Notes under the pieces: model-generated
Seen by the model: the letters and a program-made list of their open reading frames with translations, nothing else
What the model was told of the DNA's origin: nothing
Databases searched by the model: none
Part shown: piece after piece, positions 2,525 through 43,264 of the stretch
How positions within the stretch are numbered: position 1 is the first letter of the stretch
Layout: each line of letters begins with the position of its first letter
Sequence record: NC_048172.1
Length of the DNA: 43,264 nt
Source of the DNA: Escherichia phage Minorna
Strand: one strand, 5' to 3'
Position numbers and translations under genes: made by a program

Positions 2525-2921
2525 CCTGCTGACCCTTCTTCCTAAATAGCTTACGAATCACCAGAATGGCCACTAGGAAGACCAAAGGGATGCTGGCCCC
2601 TGCTAATCCGGCGAGAATAAGACTGTAACTATCGTTGTTAACCACCTGTAGGCGCTCTGCCTGGATTGTGCCTGTACTAATAGTCTGCACTTGCTTCTTG
2701 CTAGAAGTATCCAGTGTACCTACGTTAGAATCCTGTACATCGGTTTTGTTGGTGGTGCTGGAGTCCACCTTATTATTCAGCCCGAGCATCTGTTTAGTAT
2801 TCTCAGCGCCAACCTGAGCAGATACTTCCGGCTTAGAACCAACTAAGCCGGTCAGTGCAGAGGTCGCTGAGCAACCAGTCAGAGTAACCGCGAGCAGTAA
2901 CCCAGCGACCAGTTTGCGCAT
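2517..2921 (-). CDS. unimolecular spanin (u-spanin, T1 gp11-like topology)
   Basis: 134 aa; N-terminal lipoprotein signal with lipobox (LAVTLTGC), Ser/Thr-rich periplasmic region, and C-terminal TMD (ILAGLAGASIPLVFLVAILVI) followed by RKLFRKKG; within the lysis cassette. Confidence 0.6.
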   Translation of the reverse strand: MRKLVAGLLLAVTLTGCSATSALTGLVGSKPEVSAQVGAENTKQMLGLNNKVDSSTTNKTDVQDSNVGTLDTSSKKQVQTISTGTIQAERLQVVNNDSYSLILAGLAGASIPLVFLVAILVIRKLFRKKGQQDD

Positions 2922-3103
2922 TAGCTAGCCGCCTTCACCGCTGCAATAGCAGCTTCCAGTGCGGCAACCTTAGTGTCGAACGCTGCACCAGTCTGGGCTA
3001 CGTTCTGAGGCTGCGTAAGGATTGCATACAGGTCCTTACCCAGAATGTTCAGTTGACGCAGCAGCTCCTGCTGCTGTGCTTGTGTTGCCTTAGCAATTGC
3101 CAT
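2921..3103 (-). CDS. hypothetical protein (60 aa, Ala/Gln-rich, helical)
   Basis: ORF in the gene-dense minus-strand array; stop overlaps the spanin start; no TMD. Confidence 0.4.
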   Translation of the reverse strand: MAIAKATQAQQQELLRQLNILGKDLYAILTQPQNVAQTGAAFDTKVAALEAAIAAVKAAS

Positions 3104-3116
3104 AGTAATTCTCCTA

Positions 3117-3494
3117 TTATGCTGCAGCAGCGTTAGTCGCTGCTACGAAGGCCGACTGTAGGGCCTTGAATGAGTTGTCGAAGTCCGTACCAGAACCCTC
3201 ACCTAGCGGCATACCTGTACCGGTGAGCGCTACGTAGCCGGTCTTGCTAAGCTGGAACAGCATGGAGAACAGTCGCGCCTGCAGGGTGCCATCATCCTTA
3301 AAGGATTCCCCGACAGCTGTAGCCGAGTAGCCTTGGGACTCCATGTAGGCAAAGAACGTGTTGAATTTATCCAGCGCACCCGTACCCACAAAGCCGACAT
3401 TGTAGTCAGGGGCCACCTCTTTCTCAAGGTTCTGGCTCTTGCCTACAATGGCGTACTGTACATCCGCAGATTTAGCCGCGATGATTGATGCCAT
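3117..3494 (-). CDS. hypothetical protein (125 aa)
   Basis: ORF immediately downstream of the large terminase gene; start overlaps the terminase stop; no recognisable motif. Confidence 0.5.
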   Translation of the reverse strand: MASIIAAKSADVQYAIVGKSQNLEKEVAPDYNVGFVGTGALDKFNTFFAYMESQGYSATAVGESFKDDGTLQARLFSMLFQLSKTGYVALTGTGMPLGEGSGTDFDNSFKALQSAFVAATNAAAA

Positions 3495-5350
3495 TATCGT
3501 CTTCCTCTATGTTGTTTGCCTCTACCCCGACCTTGCAGCCGTGCAGCGACTCCCCGCAACTGTTTCTGGACCATACCCTGTGCCCAGTCCAACGGGTTAT
3601 TGATGAATGCTAGTGCCTGCTTCTCAGACTCTCGTGCAGCTACCACTTTCTCATCTTCTACCAGATGCCCGTTCAGTACTGCTACCATCATAGCGATGGC
3701 GTCTGCTCGGTCATCCTTAGCCAAGCTACCCCGGTCATACGTAATACCTGCGAGCTGTGCGAACGCAGAGTACAACCAGCGACGATCTCGGGGGTATAGC
3801 ATACAAGTCCCAATATCATCGTGAATAGCACGCTCATGCACCACTAGGCGGTGTCGTCGAGTTACTGGACTGATTGTGTCTATGATACGACGTTCTTTCT
3901 GCGTGGTGTTGTTAATGTCACGCACACCAATACCAGCAAGGTGACGCTCTCGTAAGCGGTTCAGAATAAGCATAGACACGGTACCGTGCCCCATGTTACT
4001 CTCTACCACCATGTCAGAGATGTCTAACTCTACGCACAGGTCAATGAGCTTGTCGATATTCTCGGTGCTTACACCTCCTTGGAAGCCCCCAACTGAGAAC
4101 AGATGAATGTATGAGTTAGCAGCCCCGCCCGCAGCATAGGAGACTTCATCCCCACCACAACCAGCTGGGTCCACCACCAGCACCTTGTGCTGATACGGCA
4201 AGTGCATATCTCCGTAGAATGCCGGGAAGTACATCTGCTGACCCATAATCCCCTCATGCTCGTGCTGGTATAAGTACCGGCGGTCCGCAATGTAGGAGAA
4301 GGTCTCTGGGGAGGAATCCTGGCTACCAGAGTAAACCAGCATATCCGAAAGCTTGATACGTGTACGCATCTGGTCGGACAGGGTTGTGTCGAGCATGTAC
4401 TGCAACTGGAAGCCTTCTGGGCCGAAGTCCAACTCCTTCTCAATCAGCGCATCCTCATCGTAGCGACCCTTATCGGTGCTCTCCCCTAACGTCCCATCGA
4501 CGCCGAAGCCGGTGCGTTTATAGCCGCGCTCAATAAGCTCCCGGATATAAGGAGCAAGTGTACTTCCATATCGCTCTTCCATTTCAACAGACGGAATGCG
4601 CCCAGGCCACACGCGGACCTCGAAGCCACGTCCCGGCAGTGTTTTATAGATACTGTCCTTGGTCTGTGGTGTACCCAGGTACAGCGTATCCCCGTGCGTA
4701 CAGATGGCCGCGAAGTCTTTAGAAATCGTCAGCAGCTGCTCGCGCTGGGTTTGCGTTAAGCCGTTCTTGGTGGTCTCGATATCGTCCGGAATCAGTAGGT
4801 CCGCACGCTTCCCCTGTAGGGATGCAGTGATACCTACACAGGCTACGCTGGCGGACTTATCTAGAGGTTTCAGGTCACAGTGTACGTCGTAACCTTCAAA
4901 GGAGGTTCGGTCCCCACGTGTAGGGTCAGCCTTCAAGTAGCACAGCAGCGGCCAGGTTTCCAGCATACGAATAATTAAGTTTGCTACGTCGGAAGCCTGC
5001 TTCTCAGCACCCGACACAATCAGGATACGGCAGGATTGGTCCTGGATGAGCCTCCAGACAGCGTATAGCGCAGCTAGTGTAGACTTAGCCTCACCACGCT
5101 GTGCAGCCACCATGCGCTTCCTAGGGCCCTTCTGCATATACTCTGCAATGTCGGCTTGCATGTCCGTGAGCGTAAAGCCTAGGAAGCGCATACCTATATA
5201 TGCGAACTCCCTGAAATTACTGAGGGTAGCCGCCATCATCATGGCGATATCCTCGCGCTCCTCTTTGGGAATACTGCGCGGGTTCGCATTATAACCAGTA
5301 AGTTTCTGGTTGAGCATGCGCAGTCTTCGCGCAGTCTTCACCGATACCAT
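3494..5350 (-). CDS. terminase large subunit (T7 gp19-like DNA maturase B)
   Basis: 618-aa ORF at the position and size of T7-like large terminases, with ATPase-like N-terminal half and nuclease-like C-terminal half; directly follows the putative small subunit. Confidence 0.85.
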   Translation of the reverse strand: MVSVKTARRLRMLNQKLTGYNANPRSIPKEEREDIAMMMAATLSNFREFAYIGMRFLGFTLTDMQADIAEYMQKGPRKRMVAAQRGEAKSTLAALYAVWRLIQDQSCRILIVSGAEKQASDVANLIIRMLETWPLLCYLKADPTRGDRTSFEGYDVHCDLKPLDKSASVACVGITASLQGKRADLLIPDDIETTKNGLTQTQREQLLTISKDFAAICTHGDTLYLGTPQTKDSIYKTLPGRGFEVRVWPGRIPSVEMEERYGSTLAPYIRELIERGYKRTGFGVDGTLGESTDKGRYDEDALIEKELDFGPEGFQLQYMLDTTLSDQMRTRIKLSDMLVYSGSQDSSPETFSYIADRRYLYQHEHEGIMGQQMYFPAFYGDMHLPYQHKVLVVDPAGCGGDEVSYAAGGAANSYIHLFSVGGFQGGVSTENIDKLIDLCVELDISDMVVESNMGHGTVSMLILNRLRERHLAGIGVRDINNTTQKERRIIDTISPVTRRHRLVVHERAIHDDIGTCMLYPRDRRWLYSAFAQLAGITYDRGSLAKDDRADAIAMMVAVLNGHLVEDEKVVAARESEKQALAFINNPLDWAQGMVQKQLRGVAARLQGRGRGKQHRGRR

Positions 5351-7221: not shown

Positions 7222-10200
7222 TTAATCGTCTCCGAAGTTATTGATGATAGCTCGCGTAGGCGCGAATTCCTGGATTAACGGGACCTGCTTAGTGAAGGTC
7301 TGGATATCCATATCCCCAGTAGCCAGGGCTTGCACCGCACCCAACAGCCCGGTGACGTAGCCCATAGACGCCAGAGAATGACGCGGAGAGTCCCCAGTGA
7401 AGATATCCTGCAGAAGCGAGATACCACCGATGGCACTCATACCCATAACCGATTCAGCGATAAGCTTTTGAGTGTCGACCTCTTTGCCGTCCATACCGTG
7501 CTTCGCCATAGTTGCTAGAAGCATCAATGGGAACTGGTATGCCATGATGTGTGCAACCCCAATCCACCCGGCATCATTCAACTCGCGGCGCAGAATCTTG
7601 TTGGTGGCAGCCAGGGCGAAGCTCTGATAGCCGACAATTACTTTGCCGATAGGGTTGAACTGGGCGAAGTGCGAGGTCTCACCGGTACGTACTTGCTGCA
7701 CCAAATAGTCCATCATACGCGTCCCTACCACCTCAACTTGCATTTGCAGGTCCGGCTGGAACATAGCACCAGGATTAGCTTTGTTAGCAGCAATAGCCCG
7801 GTCAGCGATTTCACGAGTAAGACCGAAACGTTCCAGACGCTTAAACGCCTCAGCGTCGCCCTTGAACATCTGCTGGAGCTCGTCCGCTACAATACCTGAG
7901 TTAAGGTTAACCTGCAGTCGATGTACCATACTCATACCGTTGACGTGACGTGCAGCCTGTCCAACGTTCTGGGTGACGTTAAACCAGGAAGCCTGACGGG
8001 TCAGGTCCAAGTTATCGTCTGCGTAGGTATTCAACCAGCGGAAGCGCATCTCCTTCTGGATACTACCACGTAGGATTGCATCCAGACGACTAGCCATATC
8101 CGGAGTGCGAATAGCTACGGAACCTTCTTTAAACCAAGGCTGCTCACGCATACTGCGAAGTACTCGGGACATACCAAACTCTTTCAGCGCTAGGGCGGTG
8201 TCAGTAAGCTGGTACAACCCAGAGTTCTTAAGCATGGTAGCGTTGGCCATGTTACCGGCTGCACGGAGCAGGTCCGGCATCTGCCCGGCGTCGGCTGGTG
8301 CCCCACCTAAGATAAAGTCGATGGTGTCATTAACGGTCTTCTCCCACTTACCTGAATCGGCCAGGGCGTGTTTGGACTCATTAATCATTGTCTCCAGCAC
8401 CTTGAGGTCAGATATCCCAGCATAAGCCATACCCACACGACCTGACATTCGGTTAGTATAACCATGCATAACCTTGGCTACGTCAGTATCCATCAGATCC
8501 TGCATACGCATAACCTGACCGTCTACGATGTACTCTTTGTCCATGTTGAAGCGGGTACGTTGACGGAGGTTCTTAGCAGGCGAGGTGGCGCCAGATTCTC
8601 GGACATTACCTGCCAAGAAACTCTGGATTGCATCCTCGTCTACACCAGCATTACGCATGGCCATAACTACTTCATCATTACCCATACCATTGATGAGTTG
8701 CTTCCACATAGGACCAGAGGCCGAGGAGCGTCCGTTGTAGATACCGTCAACCATCTCCTTAGCAACACGTTGAACGACCTCAGGCTCCATAGATGGATAC
8801 ACATCACGCAGTGCCTGACGGAACAGATCCCGATAATTATCCAAGGAGCGACCATTTGCAATACCTTGGCGCATCTTATCGTAGCTGTACTGGCGAGGGA
8901 AGTAATAGTCCGATTTAATCAGAGTACCGTCATCCACCAGCCCGGCAGCAGTCATGTGATCGTGCCACTTACTGGCCCAGCCGGAGTTGCGGTATGCCTC
9001 TACTAGCGGAACCAAGTCAGAGTCCGGCAGAGGTACCGGGCGTCCATTAACCTCCGCGCTGTATGCAGAGTCCAGGTAACGGCCCAAGCGGGCTTCTAAG
9101 TCAGCGCGAGCTGCTCGGAAGTTGCTACGGTGGAAGAAGCGGTCTATGAAACCTACACCTTTGGCCTTAAGGGCACCAAGTATAGCGTCCTCAACTACAC
9201 TGGCACTAGCGTCCATCTCCAACGTAAGGTTACGCTTGAAGTCCACCACAGACGGTTTACGACCGCCTACAGCAGTAGCGTCAGATACTAGTAAGCGTGC
9301 CAGGTCCTCGCTACCCTCTGCGATGTTATCATACAGGGAGAACATAGTGGCGAACTTGCGCTTAGCAGTGTCCATCATAGCTTGGGCCTTCAAGGCCTCA
9401 TGCTTAACCGATGTATCCGCCAAGTCCTGGAAGGCCTCACTCCGGAAGCTCTGAGCTTGGTCTGCGTAGTCCTTTGCGGTCCACTTGACAGCATCCTCGT
9501 ACGCGTCCAGAACATCCTCCAGAGCGGACCCCTTGGTGCGAATCCCCAGGGCATTCATGATGTACTCACCAATCTGGCGGAGCATACTCCTACCAGTAGG
9601 AGATTGAGTTCTAGAGAGATACTCCACCCACTCAGGGCTATCACCTAGTCCTGCTAACATCTCGTGCACATCGCTTGCGTAGTACTTAAGCTTATCACTG
9701 AGGGTTGAATCAGCTGCTATTGCAGCGCGCACCTCTTCCAGCTTACTAGCAATTTCAGGATTCTGCTTGATGGCTCTGGTGGTGGCAGCGTGAATCAGCT
9801 CGTGCACTGCTACTCGGCTAGTGTCCGCATCCATAGCACGCAGAGCATCCCCGGCAGTAGTCCAGGTACTTCCGTTCGCTTTCTTAGGGGCACGTAAAGA
9901 TATAAAACCCCTATCAGTTGTTGATGCTGGTGAAAATCCGTAGTGACTACGGTTAGAAGAACCGGCCACCAGTTTAAAGTCGATATCCTGTACTGCGTCA
10001 CCCAGGGTGTCCAGGATAGCCTTCTGACCTTTAGATAAGTGTTCAGAGGTCTTGAGGAAACGGACTACGTCCTGCGCTTTCATGTTAACAGCAGCAGTGT
10101 TATTCCGGCGAACTTGGATAGGTTCATCCAGTACCTTAGTGAGTATTGTGTCCCCTTCTCCTACTCCTGTAACATTAGCATCCCTTGCTGTACGAGTTGT

Positions 10201-10920: not shown

Positions 10921-10949
10921 ATTATCTCCTAAAAGAATTTTGATAAGGG

Positions 10950-10967
10950 GAGGCCCCGAAGGGCCTC
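10950..10967 (-). promoter_or_regulatory. intergenic stem-loop with cUUCGg tetraloop (candidate attenuator / RNA processing site)
   Basis: Minus-strand RNA gaggccc-UUCG-gggccuc: 7-bp GC-rich stem closed on a UUCG loop, starting 3 nt after the stop of the gp15-like gene, followed by a moderately U-rich stretch and the GGAGA RBS of the next gene. Confidence 0.4.
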
Positions 10968-10969
10968 TG

Positions 10970-13654
10970 TTAGTGTGTTACCTCAAACATCCAGTTACGC
11001 AGTCCTTGCTCCAGATATTTCTTACGTTTAGGCTGTGCCTGCTTGTAAGCTGGAGTATTGCGCAGTGCTTGCCAAGCCTTACCTTGGGCCTCCGATACAG
11101 GATACTGGTAAGCCCCTACAGGGGTCTTAGATGCCTTACGTACCTGTGCCACGGCCTCTGCTACAGGGCCAGAACTCCCGTTGCCACCATGATAGTTCAA
11201 GTCAACCATAACCTTCAGGGCATCCGCAGAGGCGCTTAGGCCCTGCCCGCGCAGTTGCTTGTTCACGTTCGGGATGTACTGCTGCTCCAGAGAGGATTTC
11301 AGAATGCTGATACCGTCGTCGATAGTAACCTTCTTAGGAACAGGCATACCAGAGTTGTTGTGCAGACCAAAACCTACACTGCCATTACCTTTACCTTCCC
11401 GGAACCCTTCAAACTGCATGATATTGGCGAGAATCTCACTAAATAAAGAAGGTTCTACACCAGCCCCATTACGACCATTGACCTGAACACTTACAGCTCT
11501 GCCGTTGTCATGATCGTAGAAAGTAGCTGGGCGGATACCAACTTGCTCGCTGCCAATCTTCATCTCACCAGCCAGCGCCTTGTTGTAAGCATCCTGCGCA
11601 GTAGATTGAACATCCTGTAGATTCACAGACATAGTCTGAAAGGTACCCTTCTTGTCGAATACGGTGACAGTCATATTCTGTGCTGAGTTGCCTGCTGTAG
11701 CAGCCTGCACTACTACGCGCTCAAGGTTGCTTGGGTCGATTAAGGCGTTGACCTGGTTCTGAATCTGCTGCTGCAGAGACGACTTGAACTGCTCCTGGTC
11801 TCCTCGATAATCCCCCATTAGGGATTGAATAGAAGTCCCAGCTGGCAGGTACACGTGCCGAGGAGCCCCAGAGATATCTAACTCCAGCTTACGGGCTTGG
11901 ATGTTACCTTTGAGCATCGTGTTGATATCATCAGGATCCTTACCAACTAACGCCTCTGGGTTGTGATTGTATACGTACCGATACTCTTCCTCCATAGCGG
12001 CGCGCGCTTCCTGGCGCTGTGCGTCAGCTGTGCCGAAGAAGCTGAACCAATTAGCAGTGTGACTCGGATCCACCATTTTGTCTGTGGGGTTGCTACTGAT
12101 GTTGCTGTAGCGCCCGCTAGCCTTGTTACGGGCCTGGCGACGCAGGTCGTCCAGAATGGTGTTGCTAGCGTTATTGGGGTTCTGTGCAATGGCCTTCTGA
12201 ACCACCCCCTGCCACTCAGATGGGACTTCAGACAGCAGAGCCATCTTACCTAAGTCGGTACTGGTACTATACGCTTGGGCCCACAGGTTGATGCTATTGA
12301 CATTCTCCTTGGACACCTGCCCATCCTCACCTAACTGGTCCAGTGTAGTGAGGGTGCGTGCCATATCCGAGGACATGCGCTTGTGTGCTTCATTGATGGC
12401 CCACGCATCTTTACTATTGCTACCATAAGCCAGTAGCTGCAAGTTCCCCTCTGGAGTGTCTGGGAAGTTTTTGAGTACCTGTGACCGGGCCTTATCCAAA
12501 TCCCCTTTAAACATACCAGCTAAGGTGGATGTAGGAAGGTTTCCTGTGATGGCACTACGTAAAGCCTGTGTATCGGCAGTCTTCTCCCTGATAGTCTGAG
12601 CCTTGTTCCAGAACTCCATACTGGTGCCGGGGCTTAGTACATCCGTAGCAGATAGCTCAATCACGCGGTTGCGGATACGCTGCATCGTCTGCTCCTGCTC
12701 TTCTGGGGACTGCCCCTCCAGAGACTGAATTGCATCTGAGATTTCAAAGCGAGCCCGAGTCTCAATCTGAGCCCCAGCACGCTTAAATTCCTGATACAAG
12801 GCAGCATTAACGTCTACAGAGTTAACACCAAGCTCTTTAGTTGCCATTTCCTGCAACTGGTTGATGATTAGAGGGTCCTGAGTCTGCTGCGCTACACTGA
12901 CCAGATACTGCTTGGCCCGGTCCAATTTCTTGGACTTATCCAGGTGCTCAGCTGCCAGGATACTATCCAATCCTGTCTTAATTGACATCTGTGCAGCAGC
13001 ACCCTGCCCAGCATCCAGGCGCTGATAGAACTCATCAACGGAGGAGCTGAGCCCATGGTCCAGCGCACGGTCTGCTTGTACTACCGCAAACTCTGCGCGA
13101 CCCTTCTGGAAGGCCGTATAGTTCGCTAAGCTGGTTGCACGGAGCTGCTGCAGTATCGCTGTAGCGGACTGTTTGGACATATCCGGAAGATACATACCGA
13201 GCTTGTCAGACATAGCTTGAACATGCTCTTGCTCCTGCTGGTGGAATTCCTCATCAGTCAGTCCAGCCTCAGCTGCCTTCTTAGCGCGAGCAATACTATC
13301 CGTACGCCACTTAGCTAGAGAATCGTAGGCCGCAGCAGATACATAACCATCCTGGTAGGCTTCTCGTACAAATAGATTCTGCTTCTGTACTGCCTCATCT
13401 TTAGAGGCCATTGCATCTACTGCACCCTGGGCATCCATAGCACCTCGCACAGTGGCCGCTGCTGCATTTTCTTTTACTGCTGCATCAAACCCTATACCAA
13501 AGTCCTGGACGAAGCCAGAAAGTGCTGCAAGGCGGTTTGCTTTGGATGGGTCTACTGCTACATCCCCGACGGTAGAGGGTAAGTTAACCTCGTTGGCCTG
13601 CAATTGCACGCCGCCGATACTTAGACCCTGTCGGTTGGGTTGAATTACAGGCAT
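10970..13654 (-). CDS. internal virion protein B (T7 gp15-like)
   Basis: 894-aa ORF between the gp14-like and gp16-like genes; helical, Ala/Gln-rich. Confidence 0.7.
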   Translation of the reverse strand: MPVIQPNRQGLSIGGVQLQANEVNLPSTVGDVAVDPSKANRLAALSGFVQDFGIGFDAAVKENAAAATVRGAMDAQGAVDAMASKDEAVQKQNLFVREAYQDGYVSAAAYDSLAKWRTDSIARAKKAAEAGLTDEEFHQQEQEHVQAMSDKLGMYLPDMSKQSATAILQQLRATSLANYTAFQKGRAEFAVVQADRALDHGLSSSVDEFYQRLDAGQGAAAQMSIKTGLDSILAAEHLDKSKKLDRAKQYLVSVAQQTQDPLIINQLQEMATKELGVNSVDVNAALYQEFKRAGAQIETRARFEISDAIQSLEGQSPEEQEQTMQRIRNRVIELSATDVLSPGTSMEFWNKAQTIREKTADTQALRSAITGNLPTSTLAGMFKGDLDKARSQVLKNFPDTPEGNLQLLAYGSNSKDAWAINEAHKRMSSDMARTLTTLDQLGEDGQVSKENVNSINLWAQAYSTSTDLGKMALLSEVPSEWQGVVQKAIAQNPNNASNTILDDLRRQARNKASGRYSNISSNPTDKMVDPSHTANWFSFFGTADAQRQEARAAMEEEYRYVYNHNPEALVGKDPDDINTMLKGNIQARKLELDISGAPRHVYLPAGTSIQSLMGDYRGDQEQFKSSLQQQIQNQVNALIDPSNLERVVVQAATAGNSAQNMTVTVFDKKGTFQTMSVNLQDVQSTAQDAYNKALAGEMKIGSEQVGIRPATFYDHDNGRAVSVQVNGRNGAGVEPSLFSEILANIMQFEGFREGKGNGSVGFGLHNNSGMPVPKKVTIDDGISILKSSLEQQYIPNVNKQLRGQGLSASADALKVMVDLNYHGGNGSSGPVAEAVAQVRKASKTPVGAYQYPVSEAQGKAWQALRNTPAYKQAQPKRKKYLEQGLRNWMFEVTH

Positions 13655-21735: not shown

Positions 21736-21758
21736 TCCTACTCCTGTAACATTAAATT

Positions 21759-22097
21759 TTAGTAGGGTTCCCAAACCGGTATACCTGCCTTTCTGCACAG
21801 TTCAACCATACCAGCGGTCCCCCTTCCTCCAGGAAAGGCAACACAGTATTCAGGAAAGGCCAGGGATATCATGGCTGCGTTCCTACGTATACCCGCAGAT
21901 TTACCTTGTGCATCCCACAGTGCGGGCATACGCAGAACAAATACACCAGATTCCAGGGCCCACCTATCTGCCAGTGCATCCGCCCCTCTGGCATTTCCAT
22001 GTATCACTACAGATGGCTTGTTTGGCAGCATATCCATTGCGGTTTTTAGTGCTAGGTAGTCTGAGTAATCACGCCCACCAGTTACCAGTACTCTCAT
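21759..22097 (-). CDS. SLOG / YpsA-like (DUF2493-type) small protein
   Basis: 112 aa with pattern VLVTGGRDY..VVIHGNARGADALADRWA..FPGGRGT, which I recognise as the DUF2493/SLOG-family signature; immediately downstream of the RNAP gene. Confidence 0.55.
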   Translation of the reverse strand: MRVLVTGGRDYSDYLALKTAMDMLPNKPSVVIHGNARGADALADRWALESGVFVLRMPALWDAQGKSAGIRRNAAMISLAFPEYCVAFPGGRGTAGMVELCRKAGIPVWEPY

Positions 22098-27853: not shown

Positions 27854-27866
27854 AGGCTTCCTCTAA

Positions 27867-27882
27867 GGCCCCAGGCGGGGCC
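27867..27882 (-). promoter_or_regulatory. intergenic GC hairpin (6-bp stem, 4-nt loop) just upstream of an RBS
   Basis: Plus strand ggcccc-aggc-ggggcc at 27867-27882, between the stop of the 280-aa gene and the SD of the next gene; no U-tract. Confidence 0.3.
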
Positions 27883-27905
27883 GTATTAGTTAGTAATAGG
27901 GTTGC

Positions 27906-30385: not shown

Positions 30386-30546
30386 TTGGTATCCTCTTAT
30401 GTTGTTCCTACTCGTATCACATTAATTCTCGGTAAATCACAGAATCAAGCCAGAGTCAACAAATAATTTTATTTAATTATCTGCTTGACCCCAGCTAATT
30501 CTCGTGTTACCCTAACCCCCTACACCGCCCAAGGGTCCACCTATCA

Positions 30547-33462: not shown

Positions 33463-33480
33463 GGTAGCCTCCTATGTACC

Positions 33481-33510
33481 TACATAGCGCCCTCTAGGAA
33501 GGCGCTAGGG
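33481..33510 (-). promoter_or_regulatory. conserved dyad element, copy 3 (tagcgcc-N9-ggcgcta)
   Basis: Plus strand tacatagcgccctctaggaaggcgctaggg; shares ACATAGCGCCC and the GCTA arm with the elements at 40691 and 41467; 19 nt upstream of the ATG at 33462, just after the helicase stop. Confidence 0.45.
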
Positions 33511-33513
33511 AAG

Positions 33514-34794
33514 TCACCTGTTAATCTGCCCTTCGTTAAAGCGGCACCTACCTGGGTCGAATGCCACCTCGAATTGCAGGAGCGATTCTTTACCAGATAG
33601 TGCCATCTTATTCTTCGGCGTACTGATACCACGAATGTTTTGCATATGCGGCTGCTCATTCCTGTCCAAGCACCCCATCATAATCGCCAAATCCAAAGCA
33701 CCTTGTACACCAATCTTACTCTGTTTCATTGCCGTGAGCGGAGGGAACAGTAGGTTGTAACCTTCGAGTGAAAGCTGCATAGTACCGATAACGGCACAGT
33801 CATTCTCACACCCCAAGATACGCAGCTCCTGCCACTTCGCTTCTAGATTCTGGTGCTCACTCTCCATAGTACCACCACGGATGTTCGCCACCATATCAAT
33901 GATGATTACCGCTGGGCGCATCTCCTCCATGAGCGTAGAGATTTGAGCCATCGTAAGGGAGTGCGCTGCCTTGATACGGATGCGGTCTGCCCTACCTACT
34001 TTCTCCAGATAGGCTGGCACAAACTCTTGCTTACTGTGCCTGTCCTTAATCTCAGCCAGAGTCCAATGCAGCGCCGCTTGGTATACCCTCGGCACAGTAC
34101 GCGTCGCCGGGCCTTCATTAACCAGCCATAGAATCGGACGATCCCCGTACACTTCCGGTTGCTGCTGCATCTGCTTAGCGAAGTCCACAGCAATAGCAGC
34201 GAGTAGGCTAGTTTTACCAGAATCAACAGGGGCAGCCACAGCAATACAATCACCACCACGAAGCCCACGGATGCTATTAGAGAGTTGCTCAAACACACCC
34301 AGCTTAAGACCGCCACTTTCATCAGTCGCGGCAAGTATCTCATCAACACTTCCGCTCTCCCATTCCAGTAGCGAATCATGAACAGCAGCACCATCACCGT
34401 ACTTGCGCTGGAGGTGCTTCATCTCCAGCAGGTAATCAACTTCCTCCCCGTCTTGGTAGCGCTGCGTGAGCGCTGCGACCTCTCCACTGTACGCCAGCTC
34501 GTTCAGGGTCTGGACAATCCCCACCACAGAATCCTGCGGCACGGCTTGTACTCCCCGCATAAGCTCGTCCATGATTACCCTCTCTTCCCGGGATAAGTGT
34601 CCGGCCCGGAGATTGAGCATGCTCTGCATTGCATCCCACTGCACCTCCTGGTGCTCTGGGTACGTGTTCCAGTACAGCCCTACCCAGTCAAGTAGGTTCG
34701 AGGTATCAGGGGCGAGCATGCTCTTGGGTATCTGCTCTCGCAGTCGGTTCCAGACCTTCTGCGTGCACATTGCCTTGACTACTATTAGGTCCAA
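33514..34794 (-). CDS. replicative DNA helicase (DnaB-like)
   Basis: 426 aa with Walker A-like AAPVDSGKTSLLAAIAV and DnaB-like C-terminal architecture; adjacent to the primase region. Confidence 0.8.
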   Translation of the reverse strand: MDLIVVKAMCTQKVWNRLREQIPKSMLAPDTSNLLDWVGLYWNTYPEHQEVQWDAMQSMLNLRAGHLSREERVIMDELMRGVQAVPQDSVVGIVQTLNELAYSGEVAALTQRYQDGEEVDYLLEMKHLQRKYGDGAAVHDSLLEWESGSVDEILAATDESGGLKLGVFEQLSNSIRGLRGGDCIAVAAPVDSGKTSLLAAIAVDFAKQMQQQPEVYGDRPILWLVNEGPATRTVPRVYQAALHWTLAEIKDRHSKQEFVPAYLEKVGRADRIRIKAAHSLTMAQISTLMEEMRPAVIIIDMVANIRGGTMESEHQNLEAKWQELRILGCENDCAVIGTMQLSLEGYNLLFPPLTAMKQSKIGVQGALDLAIMMGCLDRNEQPHMQNIRGISTPKNKMALSGKESLLQFEVAFDPGRCRFNEGQINR

Positions 34795-40189: not shown

Positions 40190-40453
40190 TCAAATATCGT
40201 TGTTGCTTACACCGTCCACGGTCAGAGTTACAGCGATGTTGGGTTCTTGCTCTCGCACCGCCTTAAGTAGGCGAATACCTAACGCCTTGCAACCTCCCTC
40301 TGGATTCTCAAAGAGGTCATACTCAGGGCGCGGTTGCTGCTCTTGATGCTGCCCTTGTTGAACGTGTACAGTGCAATAGGGCACTGGGTTATTCACGTCG
40401 TTGCCTAGCACCAGCATGGCGCTGGTAACAATGATGTTGACAATACTAGTCAT
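40190..40453 (-). CDS. hypothetical early protein (about 87 aa)
   Basis: Start set to ATG 40453 (GGAGA 7 nt upstream); track ORF extends to 40483 and would overlap the upstream gene. Confidence 0.45.
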   Translation of the reverse strand: MTSIVNIIVTSAMLVLGNDVNNPVPYCTVHVQQGQHQEQQPRPEYDLFENPEGGCKALGIRLLKAVREQEPNIAVTLTVDGVSNNDI

Positions 40454-40667
40454 AAAGTTGTCTCCAGTCGGTAACAATACCAAGATTCACGGCGTCCAGC
40501 AAAGTACGCGCCGCCATTTCGGTGCAAGTATCTACGAGATCTAAAGGGGATTCCTGATTGGTGTCGCGGTCAGAGAATATCATTACAGTGTAGTTGTACT
40601 CTGTATGCACTTGATTGCACCATATGGGCCAGAGTACATGCCCCGGATAGATTAGCTTTGCTTTCAT
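40446..40667 (-). CDS. hypothetical early protein (73 aa)
   Basis: ATG preceded by GAGGT and by the conserved dyad element 24 nt upstream. Confidence 0.5.
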   Translation of the reverse strand: MKAKLIYPGHVLWPIWCNQVHTEYNYTVMIFSDRDTNQESPLDLVDTCTEMAARTLLDAVNLGIVTDWRQLYD

Positions 40668-40690
40668 TTGAAACCTCGTTGTTAACGGTA

Positions 40691-40720
40691 TTCACATAGC
40701 GCCCCGCAGGACGCTATAGG
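40691..40720 (-). promoter_or_regulatory. conserved dyad element, copy 1 (atagcg-N10-cgctat)
   Basis: Plus strand ttcacatagcgccccgcaggacgctatagg; 26 of 30 nt identical to copy 2, with a compensatory pair change in the stem; lies in a 188-nt intergenic gap; a perfect TATAAT (minus strand, 40732-40727) sits just upstream. Confidence 0.5.
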
Positions 40721-40855
40721 CTTACCATTATACGTATTCTCCCAATCCCTCATAGTGCCACCTGTTATGGCGGCCTCGGGTTGGCACATCAAAGGCGTCA
40801 GAGTCGTTAGCTGCCGGAATCAGTGCTCACCACTTGATAGCTTGAATCTTATAAA

Positions 40856-41431
40856 TCATGCCGCTACCTTCAAAGTTGCATCCAGCACAGCGCGTACATC
40901 CACGCCCTGACTGATAAGCATAGATACCAAATCAGAGTCGCTCACCCCAGTTTCTTTAGCCTTCTTGATAGCGTTTTTAACGCGCCCCAGAGCTTGCAGA
41001 CGCACTGCATCGGCATCAAGGGCATCATTCTTCACCTGCTCTGCTTCGGCGTTGTACAGGGCCATACAAGCGCTATAGAAGCTGGCCACAATCACTTCAC
41101 GGCCTTGCTTGTCAGCTTGTTTATAGTCCAAACGCATAGTGTCCAGTTCAATGCCCAGCTTTTCAGCCGACGCATAGCACTTTTTAGCGTGGAATTCGTA
41201 CTTGCCCGATTCCTTGTTGAACTTGATAGGCAGCAGTGTACGCAGCACCATATCGAAATCGGCGGCATCACTGCGCTGCATATCCGTCGCCCAAGAAACG
41301 TTGCTACTAATCAGGCCGTGGAACAGAGCGCTGATAGTAATATTGCGTTTTGCTTCCACTACATCGCCCAGCGCCTTGCGAATGCTGCCAGCAGCGGTTA
41401 ATTTGAATACTCTACCAGTTGAATGAGTCAT
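40856..41431 (-). CDS. hypothetical early protein (191 aa)
   Basis: Second gene of the early region; GAGGT 5 nt upstream of the ATG; no recognisable motif. Confidence 0.55.
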   Translation of the reverse strand: MTHSTGRVFKLTAAGSIRKALGDVVEAKRNITISALFHGLISSNVSWATDMQRSDAADFDMVLRTLLPIKFNKESGKYEFHAKKCYASAEKLGIELDTMRLDYKQADKQGREVIVASFYSACMALYNAEAEQVKNDALDADAVRLQALGRVKNAIKKAKETGVSDSDLVSMLISQGVDVRAVLDATLKVAA

Positions 41432-41466
41432 GATGCACCTCTTTGATTGGTTGTTTAGGTAATTAC

Positions 41467-41496
41467 TTCACATAGCACCCCATAGGATGCTATAGG
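41467..41496 (-). promoter_or_regulatory. conserved dyad element, copy 2 (atagca-N10-tgctat)
   Basis: Plus strand ttcacatagcaccccataggatgctatagg; relative to copy 1 the stem changes G/C to A/T at paired positions; 36 nt upstream of the ATG at 41431. Confidence 0.5.
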
Positions 41497-41502
41497 CTGT
41501 AA

Positions 41503-41718
41503 TTAGCGTCCGAACTGCCCAGCAGTATACCAGCCTTGTGGCACCTTGCTACTTCCCCTTGTTTTGGTCTTACCGCGTACATTCGTACTAAACGTCGCAG
41601 ATTGCTTCATCCGCATATACCCAGCACGATTCAGCGCATCCCGGCGTTTTCTCAATTCAGGACCGGATAACTTCTCGAGTCCAGCGAACTGTTGTGCTAA
41701 CTTCTCACGATATTTCAT
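41503..41718 (-). CDS. first early gene, small basic protein (71 aa)
   Basis: ATG 41718 preceded by GAGGAGG; the track ORF (41733) begins at an in-frame TTG lying inside the SD, so it is over-extended. Confidence 0.5.
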   Translation of the reverse strand: MKYREKLAQQFAGLEKLSGPELRKRRDALNRAGYMRMKQSATFSTNVRGKTKTRGSSKVPQGWYTAGQFGR

Positions 41719-42266
41719 TGTGTACCTCCTCAAAGTTAATGATTAACGCCCTAGCAGTATTTAGCAGGACGCTAATTCTTAACCTTGTTGCCCACTGCAC
41801 TACCGTGGAACCTGTGGTTCAGGTCTCGGCGCTATTCTTTTAAGGGGCAGCGCCTCAGCGCCCCAGCCGTTTGTCATCTCGGCCCTTGATGTTACTTCTG
41901 AACTGCACTGATTATCTAGGATTGGTCGTCATCGTACCAGTCAAGGTACTGGGCCTCCCCGCAAATCAGCTTACTACGCCTTGCTTGCTTACTAAGTTAC
42001 TGCTTATCGCTCAGCTTGTCAATCACTTTCTTTCGTTCGGTCATCCGGTGCTTCATACGCCACCGGCAGCTACTGCGTGGGCTTTCCCTCCCTCCCGAAC
42101 TACTTTGATTTGTTTACCGTGTCCGCATACTCCGGTAAACGGTGCTTTCCCTAGCGGGTATCCGGCAGGCTTCGCGGTTCCTATCCGTTCCCCCTTTGGC
42201 GCGTCCTTGTATCACTCCCCGCCGTGTCGCGCCTTCCGTTGCGCCTCCTCCGTATTGCTTGGATTC

Positions 42267-42295
42267 AATCTAGCCTATGTTCTTCGCGGTGTCAA
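42267..42295 (-). promoter_or_regulatory. candidate sigma70-type early promoter (TTGACA-N17-TAGATT on the minus strand)
   Basis: Plus-strand tgtcaa at 42290-42295 and aatcta at 42267-42272; correctly oriented and spaced for minus-strand transcription toward the early genes. By-eye hexamer match only. Confidence 0.25.
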
Positions 42296-42499
42296 CCCTT
42301 TTTGTTGAGTATATAACCCTTCACACTATCTAGCCTTAATCCGGCGGAGTCTCCCGACTCTGCCCCGTTCAGCGCCTCAGCGCCTCCCGGTGATTGAACT
42401 ATAGCGCCAATAAACCAAAGGAAGCAAGCACTTTTTTAAACTTTTTATCACTAGGAGCAAAAAGGGTAAGCAGGGCAATGATTTAGCCAATGCCTCCAT

Positions 42500-42549
42500 T
42501 CTAGGGATAGCTCTAGGGATAGCCCAATACTAGCCAATACTAACTAATA
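42500..42549. repeat. tandem 12-mer tctagggatagc x2 followed by ccaatacta(g/a)-type tandem units
   Basis: Plus strand tctagggatagctctagggatagc then ccaatactagccaatactaactaatac. Confidence 0.85.
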
Positions 42550-42771
42550 CCATTTAACGCTACACAAAGCAGAGCGCAGTGACGTAACGGGAGTGGAGTC
42601 ACGGAGCGATGCGGTGACTGTGTAGGTAATGCTTACTCCCTACGGTCGTAATATAGGGCATTACTAGGGGATACTAGTGAATAGTAGTAAGTAGTATGTA
42701 TCTAGTGCCCTAAAACCCTCCTACTCGTGTAACATCATTTCTAAATAGCTTTCGAATGAAAGTAAGGGGAA

Positions 42772-42792
42772 AGGGATAGCTCTAGGGATAGC
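42772..42792. repeat. second copy of the gggatagc-tctagggatagc repeat
   Basis: Plus strand agggatagctctagggatagc, about 270 nt from the first copy. Confidence 0.85.
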
Positions 42793-42879
42793 AAAGGATA
42801 ACGCTAGGTGGCGGATAGTGGAAGTGCGCCCTAGTGGGGAGCGCGCAGCGTAGCATATAATCGGCACAATGTAAAGCAC

Positions 42880-42913
42880 TAGAGATAACCCTAGAGATAG
42901 CTCTAGAGATAGC
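42880..42913. repeat. variant repeat ctagagataaccctagagatagctctagagatagc
   Basis: Same CTAG-(G/A)GATA(G/A)C unit family with G to A variants; agagataaccctag recurs at 43051-43064. Confidence 0.85.
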
Positions 42914-43050
42914 ATATAGACGCACTAGCAGCGCACTGGGCGGCCCACTCGGCACATACTATGGCCCACTACTGGCCCACTGGGCGGCCCGCTAGAGGTC
43001 CGCAAAATAAGCAAGGCAGAGCGCACCTCTACGCCCCACAGAGAGCACGC

Positions 43051-43091
43051 AGAGATAACCCTAGTGCCCCTCAGTGCCTCCCTAGTGCCTC
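43051..43091. repeat. tandem ccctagtgcc-like units
   Basis: Plus strand agagataaccctagtgcccctcagtgcctccctagtgcctc. Confidence 0.8.
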
Positions 43092-43187
43092 TACGAGAGG
43101 CGCATAGTGATAGGCATAGGGTTACCCTAGTGATAGCCATTAAGGCGCGCAGGGAGCTTCTGCGGCCCTCCTAGAGCGCCCTCAGCT

Positions 43188-43211
43188 GGCCATCTAGACG
43201 TCTAGACGGCC
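43188..43211. repeat. 24-bp near-perfect palindrome (ggccatctagacgtctagacggcc) at the extreme end
   Basis: Perfect 12-bp core ctagacgtctag at 43194-43205; one mismatch in the outer arms; immediately followed by a C13 homopolymer (43210-43222) and a ccccc-tat-gggggg inverted repeat (43241-43254). Confidence 0.85.
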
Positions 43212-43264
43212 CCCCCCCCCCCTCCTTTATACGCTAGGCACCCCCTATGGGGGGCAATTGGGCG

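Follow-up and report, generated by a model that had tools for sequence, protein, structure and literature searches.

A conserved intergenic RNA hairpin of Drulisvirus and related phages, annotated as a promoter, is a candidate RNase III processing signal

Introduction

An inverted repeat of about 30 nt recurs between the genes of Escherichia phage Minorna (NC_048172.1). The window analysed here is this whole Drulisvirus (KP34-like) genome, 43,264 nucleotides long and read in reverse orientation. The two copies are the AGCCTATAGCGTCCTACGGGGCGCTATGTGAA motif, and for both loci it has been described as the 'putative phage promoter' of Kp34likevirus (Eriksson 2015, PMC4411677). In KP34-like genomes this was the sole repeated motif longer than 20 nt, it lay upstream of genes, and promoter or nick-site roles were suggested for it (PMC4411677); the SU552A record annotates it as 'promoter'. 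A template bearing the motif yielded no RNA with KP34 RNA polymerase in a transcription test that used a linear PCR template and the polymerase alone, and the verified promoter of this enzyme, T(A/G)ATGTTACAGGAGTA, is unrelated to the element (Lu 2019, PMC6834552).

A motif that had been a 'promoter' in the literature and in GenBank since 2015 was left functionless by the negative assay of 2019. Searches of the literature on KP34-like phages gave nothing on RNase III or the mapping of transcript ends, and nothing on the motif sequence beyond these two papers. The motif is already known; its reinterpretation in terms of RNA processing appears to be new. The original prediction, made from the letters of the window, had offered three candidate roles for the dyad, namely a promoter or operator, an RNase III-type processing hairpin, and a 5'-UTR structure for translational control. 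The processing hairpin, whose anatomy is like that of the T7 sites, is the best supported of the three.

Results

Location of the elements

The two copies at 40691-40720 (ttcacatagcgccccgcaggacgctatagg) and 41467-41496 (ttcacatagcaccccataggatgctatagg) have 4 mismatches over 30 positions and are both followed by ct, which reproduces the 26/30 identity first reported. The paired change between them (atagcG..Cgctat in one, atagcA..Tgctat in the other) is present in the sequence, as is the third copy, tagcgcc-N9-ggcgcta, at 33481-33510. The string gcaggacgcta does occur at 41764-41774, but what had been taken for a partial copy of the dyad forms one side of a conserved ~24-bp hairpin. The elements and their neighbours are listed below.

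42267..42295, minus strand: sigma-70-type early promoter, TTGACA-17-TAGATT (sigma-70 scan)
41731..41787, minus strand: E0, a long hairpin immediately 5' of the gp1 Shine-Dalgarno sequence, including the 'partial copy' at 41764-41774
41503..41718, minus strand: gp1, 71 aa, no assigned function, the cistron 5' of E1 (ORF list, phrog_6352)
41455..41510, minus strand: E1 (copy 2 of the original prediction), between gp1 and gp2
40856..41431, minus strand: gp2, 191 aa, no assigned function, the cistron 3' of E1 (ORF list, phrog_5277)
40679..40734, minus strand: E2 (copy 1 of the original prediction), upstream of gp4
40446..40667, minus strand: gp4, 73 aa, no assigned function, the cistron 3' of E2 (ORF list, phrog_7657)
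33474..33518, minus strand: E3 (the third copy), between the helicase gene and a 51-aa ORF

The early promoter has the hexamers and 17-nt spacing of the host promoters in Table 3 of PMC4411677, and a host-polymerase transcript from it likely carries E0, E1 and E2. It is the sole sigma-70 site in 40400-43264 (42295-42267); no hexamers at 16-18 nt spacing were found at the elements. The scan detected no intrinsic terminator at the elements either, the stem being followed by UGUGAAK and no U run. The T(A/G)ATGTTACAGGAGTA motif lies at 10162-10177, 21739-21754 and 42722-42737 and at none of the elements. With a negative published assay and the true promoter motif elsewhere in the window, a phage-polymerase promoter is unsupported, and the promoter role originally considered finds no backing from an overlapping sigma-70 site.

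The elements end 18-45 nt before the minus-strand start codons downstream of them (ATGs at 40667, 41431, 33462 and 41718) and lie between ORFs, in keeping with the intergenic position first described. The hairpins may still play a part in translational control within the 5'-UTR, although the Shine-Dalgarno sequences fall outside them. None of the proteins encoded beside the element has an assigned function, and in a PHROG comparison they differ between genera. We rejected a tie to one particular downstream gene, as gp2 of Drulisvirus and gp2 of J8-65 are unrelated and belong to different PHROGs.

Structure and covariation of the hairpin

Each of the two copies forms a hairpin of about 56 nt on the sense (minus) strand, and the 30-nt dyad is its core. 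The upper stem of 10 bp includes two U•G wobbles and carries a tetraloop. Beneath it, AGCC on the 5' side and UGAA on the 3' side form a conserved internal loop in which a single C-G pair is invariant; then comes a lower stem of 6-8 bp that flanks the 32-nt core and varies in sequence between copies and phages with its complementarity kept. The whole helix is equivalent to about 20-22 bp (6-8 bp + 4 loop positions + 10 bp), or roughly two turns, and the fold was also predicted independently by RNAalifold. The stem noticed at the outset is real, but it measures 10 bp on the sense strand rather than 6 because of the two U•G pairs, and the outer stem of 6-8 bp had been overlooked.

In E1, the lower stem pairs 41506-41499 with 41466-41459 (AAUUAC/GUAAUU) and its 5' arm contains the gp1 stop codon TAA; the 32-nt core spans 41498-41467, with the upper stem and its UAUG loop at 41494-41471. 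The core of E2 spans 40722-40691, with a UGCG loop, and its lower stem (AUGGUA/UACCGU) was found in this phage alone. The predicted RNA folds have energies of -17.1 kcal/mol (z -3.7) for E1 and -23.3 kcal/mol (z -4.0) for E2, compared with -12.8 and -15.0 for the antisense strands; antisense folds are weaker by 4-8 kcal/mol. A covariance model was built from the copies of relatives and then scanned over the window. It matched E1 with 74.2 bits (E 1e-19) and E2 with 71.3 bits, while elsewhere in the window nothing scored better than E 0.28. With scores of 74 and 71 bits (E ~1e-19), these matches are far beyond chance. A search of the window against Rfam 15 gave no match at the gathering threshold, and around the elements it gave noise alone at E <5.

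Covariation was analysed in two alignments, A1 and A2, of 45-63 distinct sequences from several genera. Pairing is possible in 92.9-93.4% of the cells, and in 22-48% once the partners are slid by 1-3 columns. Both sides have changed at 10/19 pairs in A1 and at 13/19 pairs in A2, where 500 shuffles all fell short of the real alignment on every measure. The lower stem exists in at least six unrelated sequences, all of them complementary, and upper-stem compensations are found in other genera (UAAUGC/GCAUUG in LIMEzero, A-U at the closing pair in Dickeya, a C-G to G-C flip in PP2). A strand test of the pairing counted 143 G•U cells versus 18 A·C cells. The 93% pairing, the double compensations and the excess of G•U over A·C cells therefore identify a sense-strand RNA structure and not a DNA dyad.

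The element is a selected structure that keeps its pairing through compensatory change, and the case for this is now much stronger than the one first made. The original prediction had named a selected structure or a dimer-binding site; the compensatory pairing sustains the former, whereas its strand asymmetry counts against the latter. A palindromic dimer operator is likewise disfavoured by the G•U to A·C ratio and by outer arms that covary without conservation of sequence.

E3 and E0 are structured relatives of the canonical element

E3 has the architecture of E1 and E2 with a different internal loop. Pairing by hand gives an upper stem of 10 bp (33507-33498 with 33494-33485) and a CUA loop, beneath which follow C·U, C-G, C·U and then the lower stem, whose 5' arm contains the helicase stop codon TGA. 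In short context E3 folds with -20.8 kcal/mol; with longer flanks, the minimum-energy fold pairs just the apical 8 bp and z is merely -1.6. It was missed by covariance model R1 in the window scan. E3 is kept in 10 Drulisvirus loci, with the loop as the sole varying part.

In E0 (~24 bp), a 2x2 loop separates a lower stem of 9 bp from an upper stem of 13 bp, the latter with one bulge; E0 has UAGCGUCCUGC in common with the element family. Its predicted fold has an energy of -30.7 kcal/mol (z -4.8), and its covariance-model match is weak (E 0.65). The fold is retained by compensatory changes in ten distinct orthologous sequences, for example L032 and L027.

Distribution across phages

Across 296 phage records, which represent at least eight enterobacterial host genera and at least seven phage genera, identity in the 32-nt core is 87-100%, and the ~56-nt hairpin is carried by about 300 genomes of Klebsiella, E. 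coli and Pectobacterium phages. Conservation and covariation in related genomes, which the original prediction had proposed to test, are both present. In about 11 genomes that were examined, the element adjoins unrelated genes and is always intergenic and in the sense orientation. Such a wide distribution beside unrelated genes points to a shared trans-acting factor, for example the conserved host RNase III. The core has no match among 5,426 E. coli genomes, and a host origin was rejected on these grounds. A mobile element was rejected as well, since the flanking repeats are inverted whereas insertion would yield direct ones.

Hybrid elements in L013, L052 and L075 mark a deletion of gp2-gp3 between two copies. 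Because these natural hybrids are mismatched in the lower stem, the latter is dispensable at least there. L044, L051 and L065 have an additional copy of the element along with additional sequence. In J8-65 and LIMEzero, hairpins of similar build occupy most early intergenic gaps, and the canonical element occupies the first slot of this series. At least three of these early-gap hairpins closely resemble T7 sites (compare CAGGCCAUCUGCGGGUGGCCUG of J8-65 with CAGGUCAUCUGCGGGUGGCCUG of T7 R1). The J8-65 element retains its own sequence class beside five T7-like hairpins. Within the Minorna window, a search for T7-type hairpin signatures returned none that were convincing.

Discussion

RNase III processing as the probable function

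The elements are probably host RNase III processing signals in polycistronic early and middle mRNA, built like the T7 early-mRNA sites. RNase III of the host would bind the two-turn helix, and the internal loop would limit the cut to the 3' side, ~13 nt past the loop (...GCUAUGUGA^A). The predicted cuts, placed solely by analogy, lie between 41468 and 41467 in E1 (GUGA^A), between 40692 and 40691 in E2, and between 33482 and 33481 in E3. Cutting in E1 would part gp1 and gp2, in E2 the gp2 region and gp4, and in E3 the helicase gene and the ORF that follows it. A stable 3' hairpin, resistant to 3'-5' exonucleases, would remain on the upstream message, and the downstream message would acquire a defined 5' end 20-37 nt ahead of its start codon.

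The determinants of E. coli RNase III (distal, proximal and middle box) were defined with uR1.1, in which a U•G pair at distal-box position 2 (U15:G24) is stringently required and G-C or C-G at proximal-box positions 2 and 4 act as binding and catalytic antideterminants (PMC1540722). The box register on the element was assumed from its anatomy, and in this assumed register the element agrees with the published determinants (PMC1540722). The equivalent of distal-box position 2 (columns 24:33), the third pair from the loop, is U•G in 61/63 and 42/45 sequences. Proximal-box position 2 (columns 18:39) corresponds to A-U in all sequences, without G-C or C-G, and position 4 (columns 16:41) to a C·U mismatch like that of natural R1.1; the middle box reads G-C then C-G. 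The invariant C15-G42 pair agrees as well with a rule seen in vivo, by which at least one of the two positions separating the cuts is usually G-C or C-G (PMC6212723). The internal loop would fit a design in which a single strand is cut.

Several observations count against RNase III processing. E2-type copies have G-C at distal-box position 1, and every distal-box substitution examined in uR1.1 lowered cleavage ~5-fold or more (PMC1540722). In one LIMEzero copy the wobble is flipped to G•U, a change that cost uR1.1 50-fold (PMC1540722). The natural hybrids with mismatched lower stems also count against it. Finally, the core is far more invariant than RNase III requires and than the T7 sites are, and another sequence-specific factor may read the element.

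Alternative explanations

One alternative is a structured RNA that works without RNase III cleavage, whether as a protein site (for translational or decay control, or for antitermination of the nut/boxB type), through uncoupled RNase III binding, or as a plain stabiliser that blocks exonucleases or insulates cistrons. The evidence for structure and sense-strand specificity is as solid for such an RNA as it is for RNase III processing; the 32-nt core, unpaired AGCC/UGAA included, is (near-)invariant across genera, and this conservation beyond that of T7 sites suggests base-specific recognition. The J8-65 element, distinct in class from its T7-like neighbours, fits as well, and RNase III binding motifs resistant to cleavage are documented (PMC1540722). 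We nevertheless regard cleavage-free action as unlikely, given that the neighbouring genes offered no candidate binding protein and that the hairpins do not cover the ribosome-binding sites; a generic stabiliser, moreover, would do without what RNase III needs, namely a helix of this length, an internal loop of this design, and U•G and A-U at the conserved positions. A bolder proposal, which we hold to be similarly doubtful, is that phiKMV-like enterobacterial phages possess a dedicated cis-regulatory RNA, not recognised before, in place of a plain RNase III site. A specific factor, either a conserved phage protein or RNase III that binds without cleaving, would recognise its invariant internal loop and upper stem and so time or balance early versus middle expression. 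It would fit better than RNase III processing with the near-perfect conservation of 32 nt in at least seven genera beside unrelated genes.

A role at the DNA level (a phage polymerase promoter, perhaps N4-style and dependent on supercoiling, a phiKMV-like nick site, or a dimer operator) is very improbable. What recommends it is the motif's standing as the sole long repeat 5' of genes in KP34-like genomes, for which promoter and nick roles have been proposed (PMC4411677), and the linear-template assay would be blind to a promoter that depends on supercoiling or a co-factor (PMC6834552). However, KP34 RNA polymerase gave no RNA and has its verified, unrelated promoter (PMC6834552) elsewhere in the window, and there are no overlapping sigma-70-like hexamers. 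The conserved wobbles become C·A mismatches on the template strand, and a duplex site leaves unexplained why arms without sequence conservation should covary. The published consensus of the strand-specific nicks in phiKMV-like phages is unrelated to the element. We give even less credit to the idea that the core is mainly a recombination 'boundary' for swapping or deleting gene modules between related phages, with an incidental hairpin. A shared core beside unrelated genes in different genera would suit it, as would the hybrids and extra copies described above, yet a recombination substrate needs identity and not pairing, so that the compensatory changes, the wobbles, the strand bias and the covarying, non-identical flanks are left unexplained; any repeat can be expected to recombine between its copies as a side effect.

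Implications

Read as an RNA processing hairpin, the motif gains a role that can be tested, and its annotation is corrected. If RNase III processing holds true, T7-style mRNA processing reaches another large branch of Autographiviridae. Drulisviruses belong to the most frequently used candidates for therapy of Klebsiella pneumoniae infection, and if their early expression depends on host RNase III, this host-factor requirement would deserve notice. In phage and Klebsiella engineering, the compact, highly conserved 56-nt module could provide a part that insulates cistrons or processes messages. With ~300 genomes and good covariation, the hairpin family lends itself to a new Rfam entry.

Comparison with known systems

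The sequence that Eriksson 2015 listed as a promoter is read here as RNA, comprises ~56 nt with a covarying lower stem, and occurs in at least seven genera. Like the lambda nut boxB, it is a small conserved hairpin early in phage operons that is read as RNA. BoxB has a 5-bp stem and a GNRA-like pentaloop and acts together with boxA and the N protein, whereas the elements lie scattered among the cistrons, their helix spans two turns and is interrupted by an internal loop, and neither an N-like gene nor boxA was seen here. With the N4 virion RNA polymerase promoters the element shares an inverted repeat 5' of early genes and a phage that encodes a T7-family polymerase. The N4 promoters, which form on the template strand when the DNA is supercoiled, are hairpins with stems of 5-7 bp and loops of 3 nt; the element, in contrast, forms its better hairpin on the non-template (sense) strand, as a 20-bp structure with internal mismatches.

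The closest comparison is with the T7 RNase III sites R0.3, R0.5, R1, R1.1, R1.3, R4.7 and R18.5. The coordinates used for these sites are backed only by their folds and by the 28-nt product and the uR1.1 numbering in PMC1540722. Folded from the T7 genome, each site shows a lower stem that varies, the series C·U / U-A / C·U, a 10-bp stem and a loop of 4-5 nt; cleavage falls after nucleotide 13 on the 3' side of the loop. In the canonical element the series is G·A / C-G / C·U, topped by 10 bp and a tetraloop; in E3 it is C·U / C-G / C·U, topped by 10 bp and a triloop. Pair-type identity with the T7 sites is 0.30-0.35 in register and 0.34-0.35 shifted for E1 and E2, and we left this pair-by-pair similarity out as evidence because the register brings no gain; for E3 the gain is modest (0.46 in register versus 0.32 shifted). 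The two groups differ in sequence class (UAUAGCRUCC...GGGYGCUAUG in the element, AAGGUC...GGCCUU in T7), in the internal loop (4/4, AGCC/UGAA, versus ~4/5, ACUC/UAUGA), in the far more invariant core of the element, and in their carriers, which are phiKMV-like phages (Drulisvirus and others) for the element, whose cleavage is a prediction, and Studiervirinae for the T7 sites. They are alike in lying between genes, in the sense orientation of polycistronic mRNA, 20-37 nt ahead of the next start codon, and in occurring as several paralogous copies per genome. They also share the variable lower stem, the loop of mismatch / pair / C·U, the 10-bp upper stem and 4-nt loop, the U•G at the third pair from the loop, and the A-U at proximal-box position 2.

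Genome setting of the conserved elements

All long ORFs listed for the window lie on the minus strand. A comparison of its right-hand 4.3 kb gave 254 matching phage records, almost all of which belong to Klebsiella or Escherichia Drulisvirus (KP34-like Autographiviridae). This identifies the window as a KP34-like genome that runs in reverse orientation, with the elements of interest in the early region, at the left (5') end of that genome. The copies are designated as follows.

41731-41787, minus strand: E0, hairpin ahead of gp1
41455-41510, minus strand: E1, canonical copy between gp1 and gp2
40679-40734, minus strand: E2, canonical copy upstream of gp4
33474-33518, minus strand: E3, third copy, after the helicase gene

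The original prediction was correct in its description of the sequence. The 30-mers of the two main copies differ at four positions, are both followed by ct, and carry the paired change G..C to A..T. The third and partial copies are located where it had placed them, and all four copies stand in gaps, 18-45 nt ahead of ATGs on the minus strand. In a search with a covariance model derived from relatives, the main copies scored 74 and 71 bits (E about 1e-19), and no other match in the 43 kb was better than E 0.28.

Structure of the hairpins

The inverted repeat that had been described as a 6-bp dyad is present, but the sense-strand RNA structure is larger. In E1 and E2, the minus-strand RNA forms a 10-bp upper stem (UAUAGCRUCC/GGGYGCUAUG, two U•G wobbles included), which is closed by a UGCG, UAUG or UACG tetraloop. 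Beneath it are a C·U mismatch, an isolated C-G pair, a 2x2 loop (AG/AA) and a lower stem of 6-8 bp (AUGGUA/UACCGU in E2, AAUUAC/GUAAUU in E1). The folding energies are -23.3 (E2) and -17.1 (E1) kcal/mol, with z about -4, whereas the antisense folds are 4-8 kcal/mol weaker because the wobbles turn into C·A mismatches.

E3 is kept in ten Drulisvirus loci, with variation confined to the loop. Paired by hand, it has a 10-bp upper stem, C·U, C-G and C·U, and below them a lower stem of which the helicase stop codon is part. When longer flanks are folded as well, only the apical 8 bp are paired at minimum energy and the z-score is only -1.6. The partial copy turns out to be one arm, the 5' one, of the hairpin E0, which spans about 24 bp (-30.7 kcal/mol, z -4.8) and has the gp1 ribosome-binding site immediately downstream. 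E0 is kept in relatives, with compensatory changes in L032 (Klebsiella phage KPV811) and L027.

The small gene SU552A_03 (43 aa) has a homologue at 40735-40861 (minus strand) that seems to be truncated: an ATG overlapping the gp2 stop codon opens about 10 codons only. A different frame, which is probably not a gene, continues through the E2 hairpin as far as a TAA near 40686. The 73-aa gp4 homologue of L002 (Kp_Pokalde_001, 2039-2260) is annotated as 'DNA topoisomerase II large subunit', which is implausible at this length and probably an annotation error.

Covariation and selection on the RNA

An exact-pattern scan of IMG/VR gave 86 loci, which after removal of chance matches yielded 63 distinct 56-nt elements. 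Their lower stem has at least six unrelated sequence types, every one complementary (TAATTAC/GTAATTA, GTAGCA/TGCAAC, ATGGTA/TACCGT, GGCTGAT/ATCAACC, GGTTAAT/ATTAACC, GGTTGAC/GTTAACC), and a further form, TAGTTAC/GTAACTA. In the ungapped alignment of these elements, 92.9% of cells pair, compared with 25-43% for partners shifted by 1-3 columns; 10 of the 19 pairs have changed on both sides, and RNAalifold arrives independently at the same structure. When the alignment was enlarged by other genera, 93.4% of cells paired with double changes in 13/19 pairs, although this alignment, unlike the first, had been fitted to the model, which somewhat favours the structure. The predicted covariation was borne out: pairing is kept by compensatory change, and none of 500 shuffles of the enlarged alignment came up to the observed value on any of the measures, two of which resist phylogenetic inflation.

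Individual compensations include UAAUGC/GCAUUG in the LIMEzero upper stem, a closing C-G pair replaced by A-U or U-A in a Dickeya member and in the Drulisvirus locus L064, and the isolated C-G turned to G-C in PP2. G•U cells outnumber A·C cells by 143 to 18. The covariation and this excess show that the structure is selected, and on the sense strand, which leaves the suggested dimer-binding site on duplex DNA without support. The selected molecule would be RNA, with sense-strand ssDNA as the less plausible candidate.

Three IMG/VR contigs of Drulisvirus (L013, L075, L052) carry a single hybrid element whose 5' lower-stem arm is of E1 type and 3' arm of E2 type, and this hybrid lower stem has lost its pairing; gp2-gp3 were apparently deleted by recombination between the two copies. 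An extra canonical copy with its own lower stem (GGUUAAU/AUUAACC) follows E1 by 88-92 nt in the Drulisviruses L044 (12898-13041), L065 (6796-6939) and L051 (4502-4649), and L044 has a hybrid E1 upper stem with an A·C mismatch. In KPV811, E1 (11921-11981) has a 5-nt insertion in its loop (UACGGUAUG) and E2 has the non-matching arm pair AUGAUA/UGCAAC. Evidently, changes of loop size and occasionally a broken lower stem are tolerated.

Distribution among phages

The 32-nt core occurs at 87-100% identity in 296 phage records: 211 from Klebsiella, 53 from Pectobacterium, 18 from Escherichia, and two each from Cronobacter, Enterobacter, Shigella, Pantoea and Dickeya phages. Among the genera represented are Drulisvirus, Bonnellvirus (J8-65), Waewaevirus (LIMEzero), Phimunavirus (CB5), Stompvirus (BF25/12), Kotilavirus (PPWS2) and Wanjuvirus (PP2). 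In about eleven genomes examined, the core is always intergenic and in sense orientation, and its flanking genes vary; in J8-65, its neighbours are an anti-restriction SAMase gene on one side and, on the other, a gene that is not related to gp2 of Drulisvirus. It has no match in 5,426 complete E. coli genomes, and the element matches no Rfam family. The recurrence of an identical core next to unrelated genes, among the phages of many Enterobacterales, suggests that a common trans-acting factor reads it.

Hairpins that closely resemble those of T7 occupy other early gaps of related phages. Of the early intergenic gaps (about 50-150 nt) of J8-65 (2533-4004) and LIMEzero (2957-4719), most hold a hairpin in which an internal loop separates the lower stem from an upper stem of 9-10 bp. 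The first of each series is the canonical element, and at least three others are close to T7 sites.

J8-65 3259-3328: CAGGCCAUCUGCGGGUGGCCUG, compared with CAGGUCAUCUGCGGGUGGCCUG in T7 R1
J8-65 3605-3680: CUCAAG...CUUUAUGG
LIMEzero 3253-3315: CUC-...-UAUGAUU

This suggests that T7-style processing signals may be widespread in these phiKMV-like genera. The Drulisvirus window contains no T7-type hairpins, and its early and middle gaps are thus filled by the canonical family together with the related hairpins E0 and E3. Other intergenic hairpins are found on its minus strand at 10921-10969, 27854-27905 and 30386-30546: GAGGCCCUUCGGGGCCUC, with a UUCG loop and no U run, directly behind the 1232-aa internal-core gene; a second, GGCCCCGCCUGGGGCC; and a long A+T-rich palindrome with a TTGAC-like box in a 161-nt gap downstream of the DNA polymerase region.

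The motif as a presumed promoter

Both main loci are annotated 'promoter, discovered using MEME' in SU552A. The motif was described in five phages with the consensus AGCCTATAGCGTCCTACGGGGCGCTATGTGAA and proposed to act as a phage-specific promoter, with a role as a nick site as the alternative (Eriksson et al. 2015, PMC4411677). Purified KP34 RNA polymerase made no RNA from a PCR template with the motif, and its true promoter is T(A/G)ATGTTACAGGAGTA (Lu et al. 2019, PMC6834552). The motif has consequently been an orphan since 2019. The window contains this strong promoter at three positions.

10162-10177, minus strand: exact match
21739-21754, minus strand: exact match
42722-42737, minus strand: one mismatch, near the genome's left end

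Some 350 nt, with an extra 112-aa ORF (21759-22097) among them, separate the second from the RNA polymerase gene upstream of it; in KP34, the corresponding promoter stands directly behind the gene.

The motif itself and the classical T7 paradigm are already known. Within the searchable literature, the RNA reading, the 56-nt two-stem extension, the evidence from covariation, the occurrence in at least seven genera and the RNase III assignment appear to be new. The orphan motif becomes directly testable, and a specialist would be modestly surprised.

A proposed processing model and its alternatives

The analysis establishes an RNA hairpin on the sense strand, located between cistrons, that is conserved and covaries, spans about two helical turns and has an internal loop like those of T7. 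We consider it fairly likely that these hairpins are host RNase III processing signals in polycistronic phage mRNA. Transcription by host RNA polymerase would start at the following site.

42295-42267, minus strand: sigma-70-type promoter from a promoter scan

The transcript would run through E0, gp1, E1, gp2, E2 and gp4, and host RNase III would bind each hairpin and cut its internal loop on the 3' side, with cleavage predicted at 41468|41467 (E1), 40692|40691 (E2) and 33482|33481 (E3). E0 may be cut on both strands because it is almost fully paired. Upstream fragments would keep a 3' hairpin and with it protection from 3'-5' exonucleases, a principle given in PMC1540722. Downstream messages would begin 20-37 nt before the ATG, the same range as in four of five T7 early sites (27-35 nt).

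As an unlikely alternative, the structured RNA could be recognised by a different factor or do no more than stabilise the message; the extreme invariance of the core and, in J8-65, the coexistence of the element with T7-type hairpins favour this reading. Roles at the level of DNA, as a promoter, nick site or operator, are made very improbable by the strand asymmetry of the pairing and by the covarying arms, even though the negative transcription test used a linear template and is compatible with an N4-like, supercoil-dependent hairpin promoter. Hybrids of and deletions between the copies do occur, but a recombination boundary would leave the pairing unexplained, and we regard it as more improbable still.

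Comparison with the RNase III sites of T7

The T7 records consulted carry no RNase III features, and the T7 sequence was folded around the coordinates that we take to be its sites (890, 1468, 3138, 5887, 6448, 13892 and 36856). Six of the seven folds place the coordinate directly behind nucleotide 13 on the 3' side of the loop; R0.5 is ambiguous owing to its larger loop. In the six, a loop of 4-5 nt caps an upper stem of 9-10 bp, and the internal loop C·U / U-A / C·U lies between this and a lower stem that varies. These folds agree with the numbering of the 34-nt T7 substrate uR1.1 and its 28-nt product (PMC1540722). The canonical element has G·A / C-G / C·U, 10 bp and a tetraloop in the same places, and E3 has C·U / C-G / C·U, 10 bp and a triloop. 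All three are one design.

Pair-type identity with the T7 sites is 0.35 in register and 0.34 out of register for E1 and E2, and only modestly better in register for E3 (0.46 vs 0.32). The argument for RNase III therefore rests on the architecture and on specific determinants rather than on overall similarity. In the T7 register, the element agrees with the published reactivity determinants. Position 2 of the distal box is U•G in 61 of 63 and in 42 of 45 sequences of the two alignments. At position 2 of the proximal box, where G-C or C-G blocks RNase III binding, it has an invariant A-U, and at position 4, where either pair blocks catalysis (PMC1540722), it has a C·U mismatch in common with natural T7 R1.1. 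Its middle-box pairs are G-C, the substitution that raised reactivity, and then C-G, the wild-type pair (PMC1540722). The isolated invariant C-G lies between the two potential cuts, where sites cleaved in vivo usually include at least one G-C or C-G pair (PMC6212723). Such determinants would explain why the wobbles and particular pairs are frozen while others vary.
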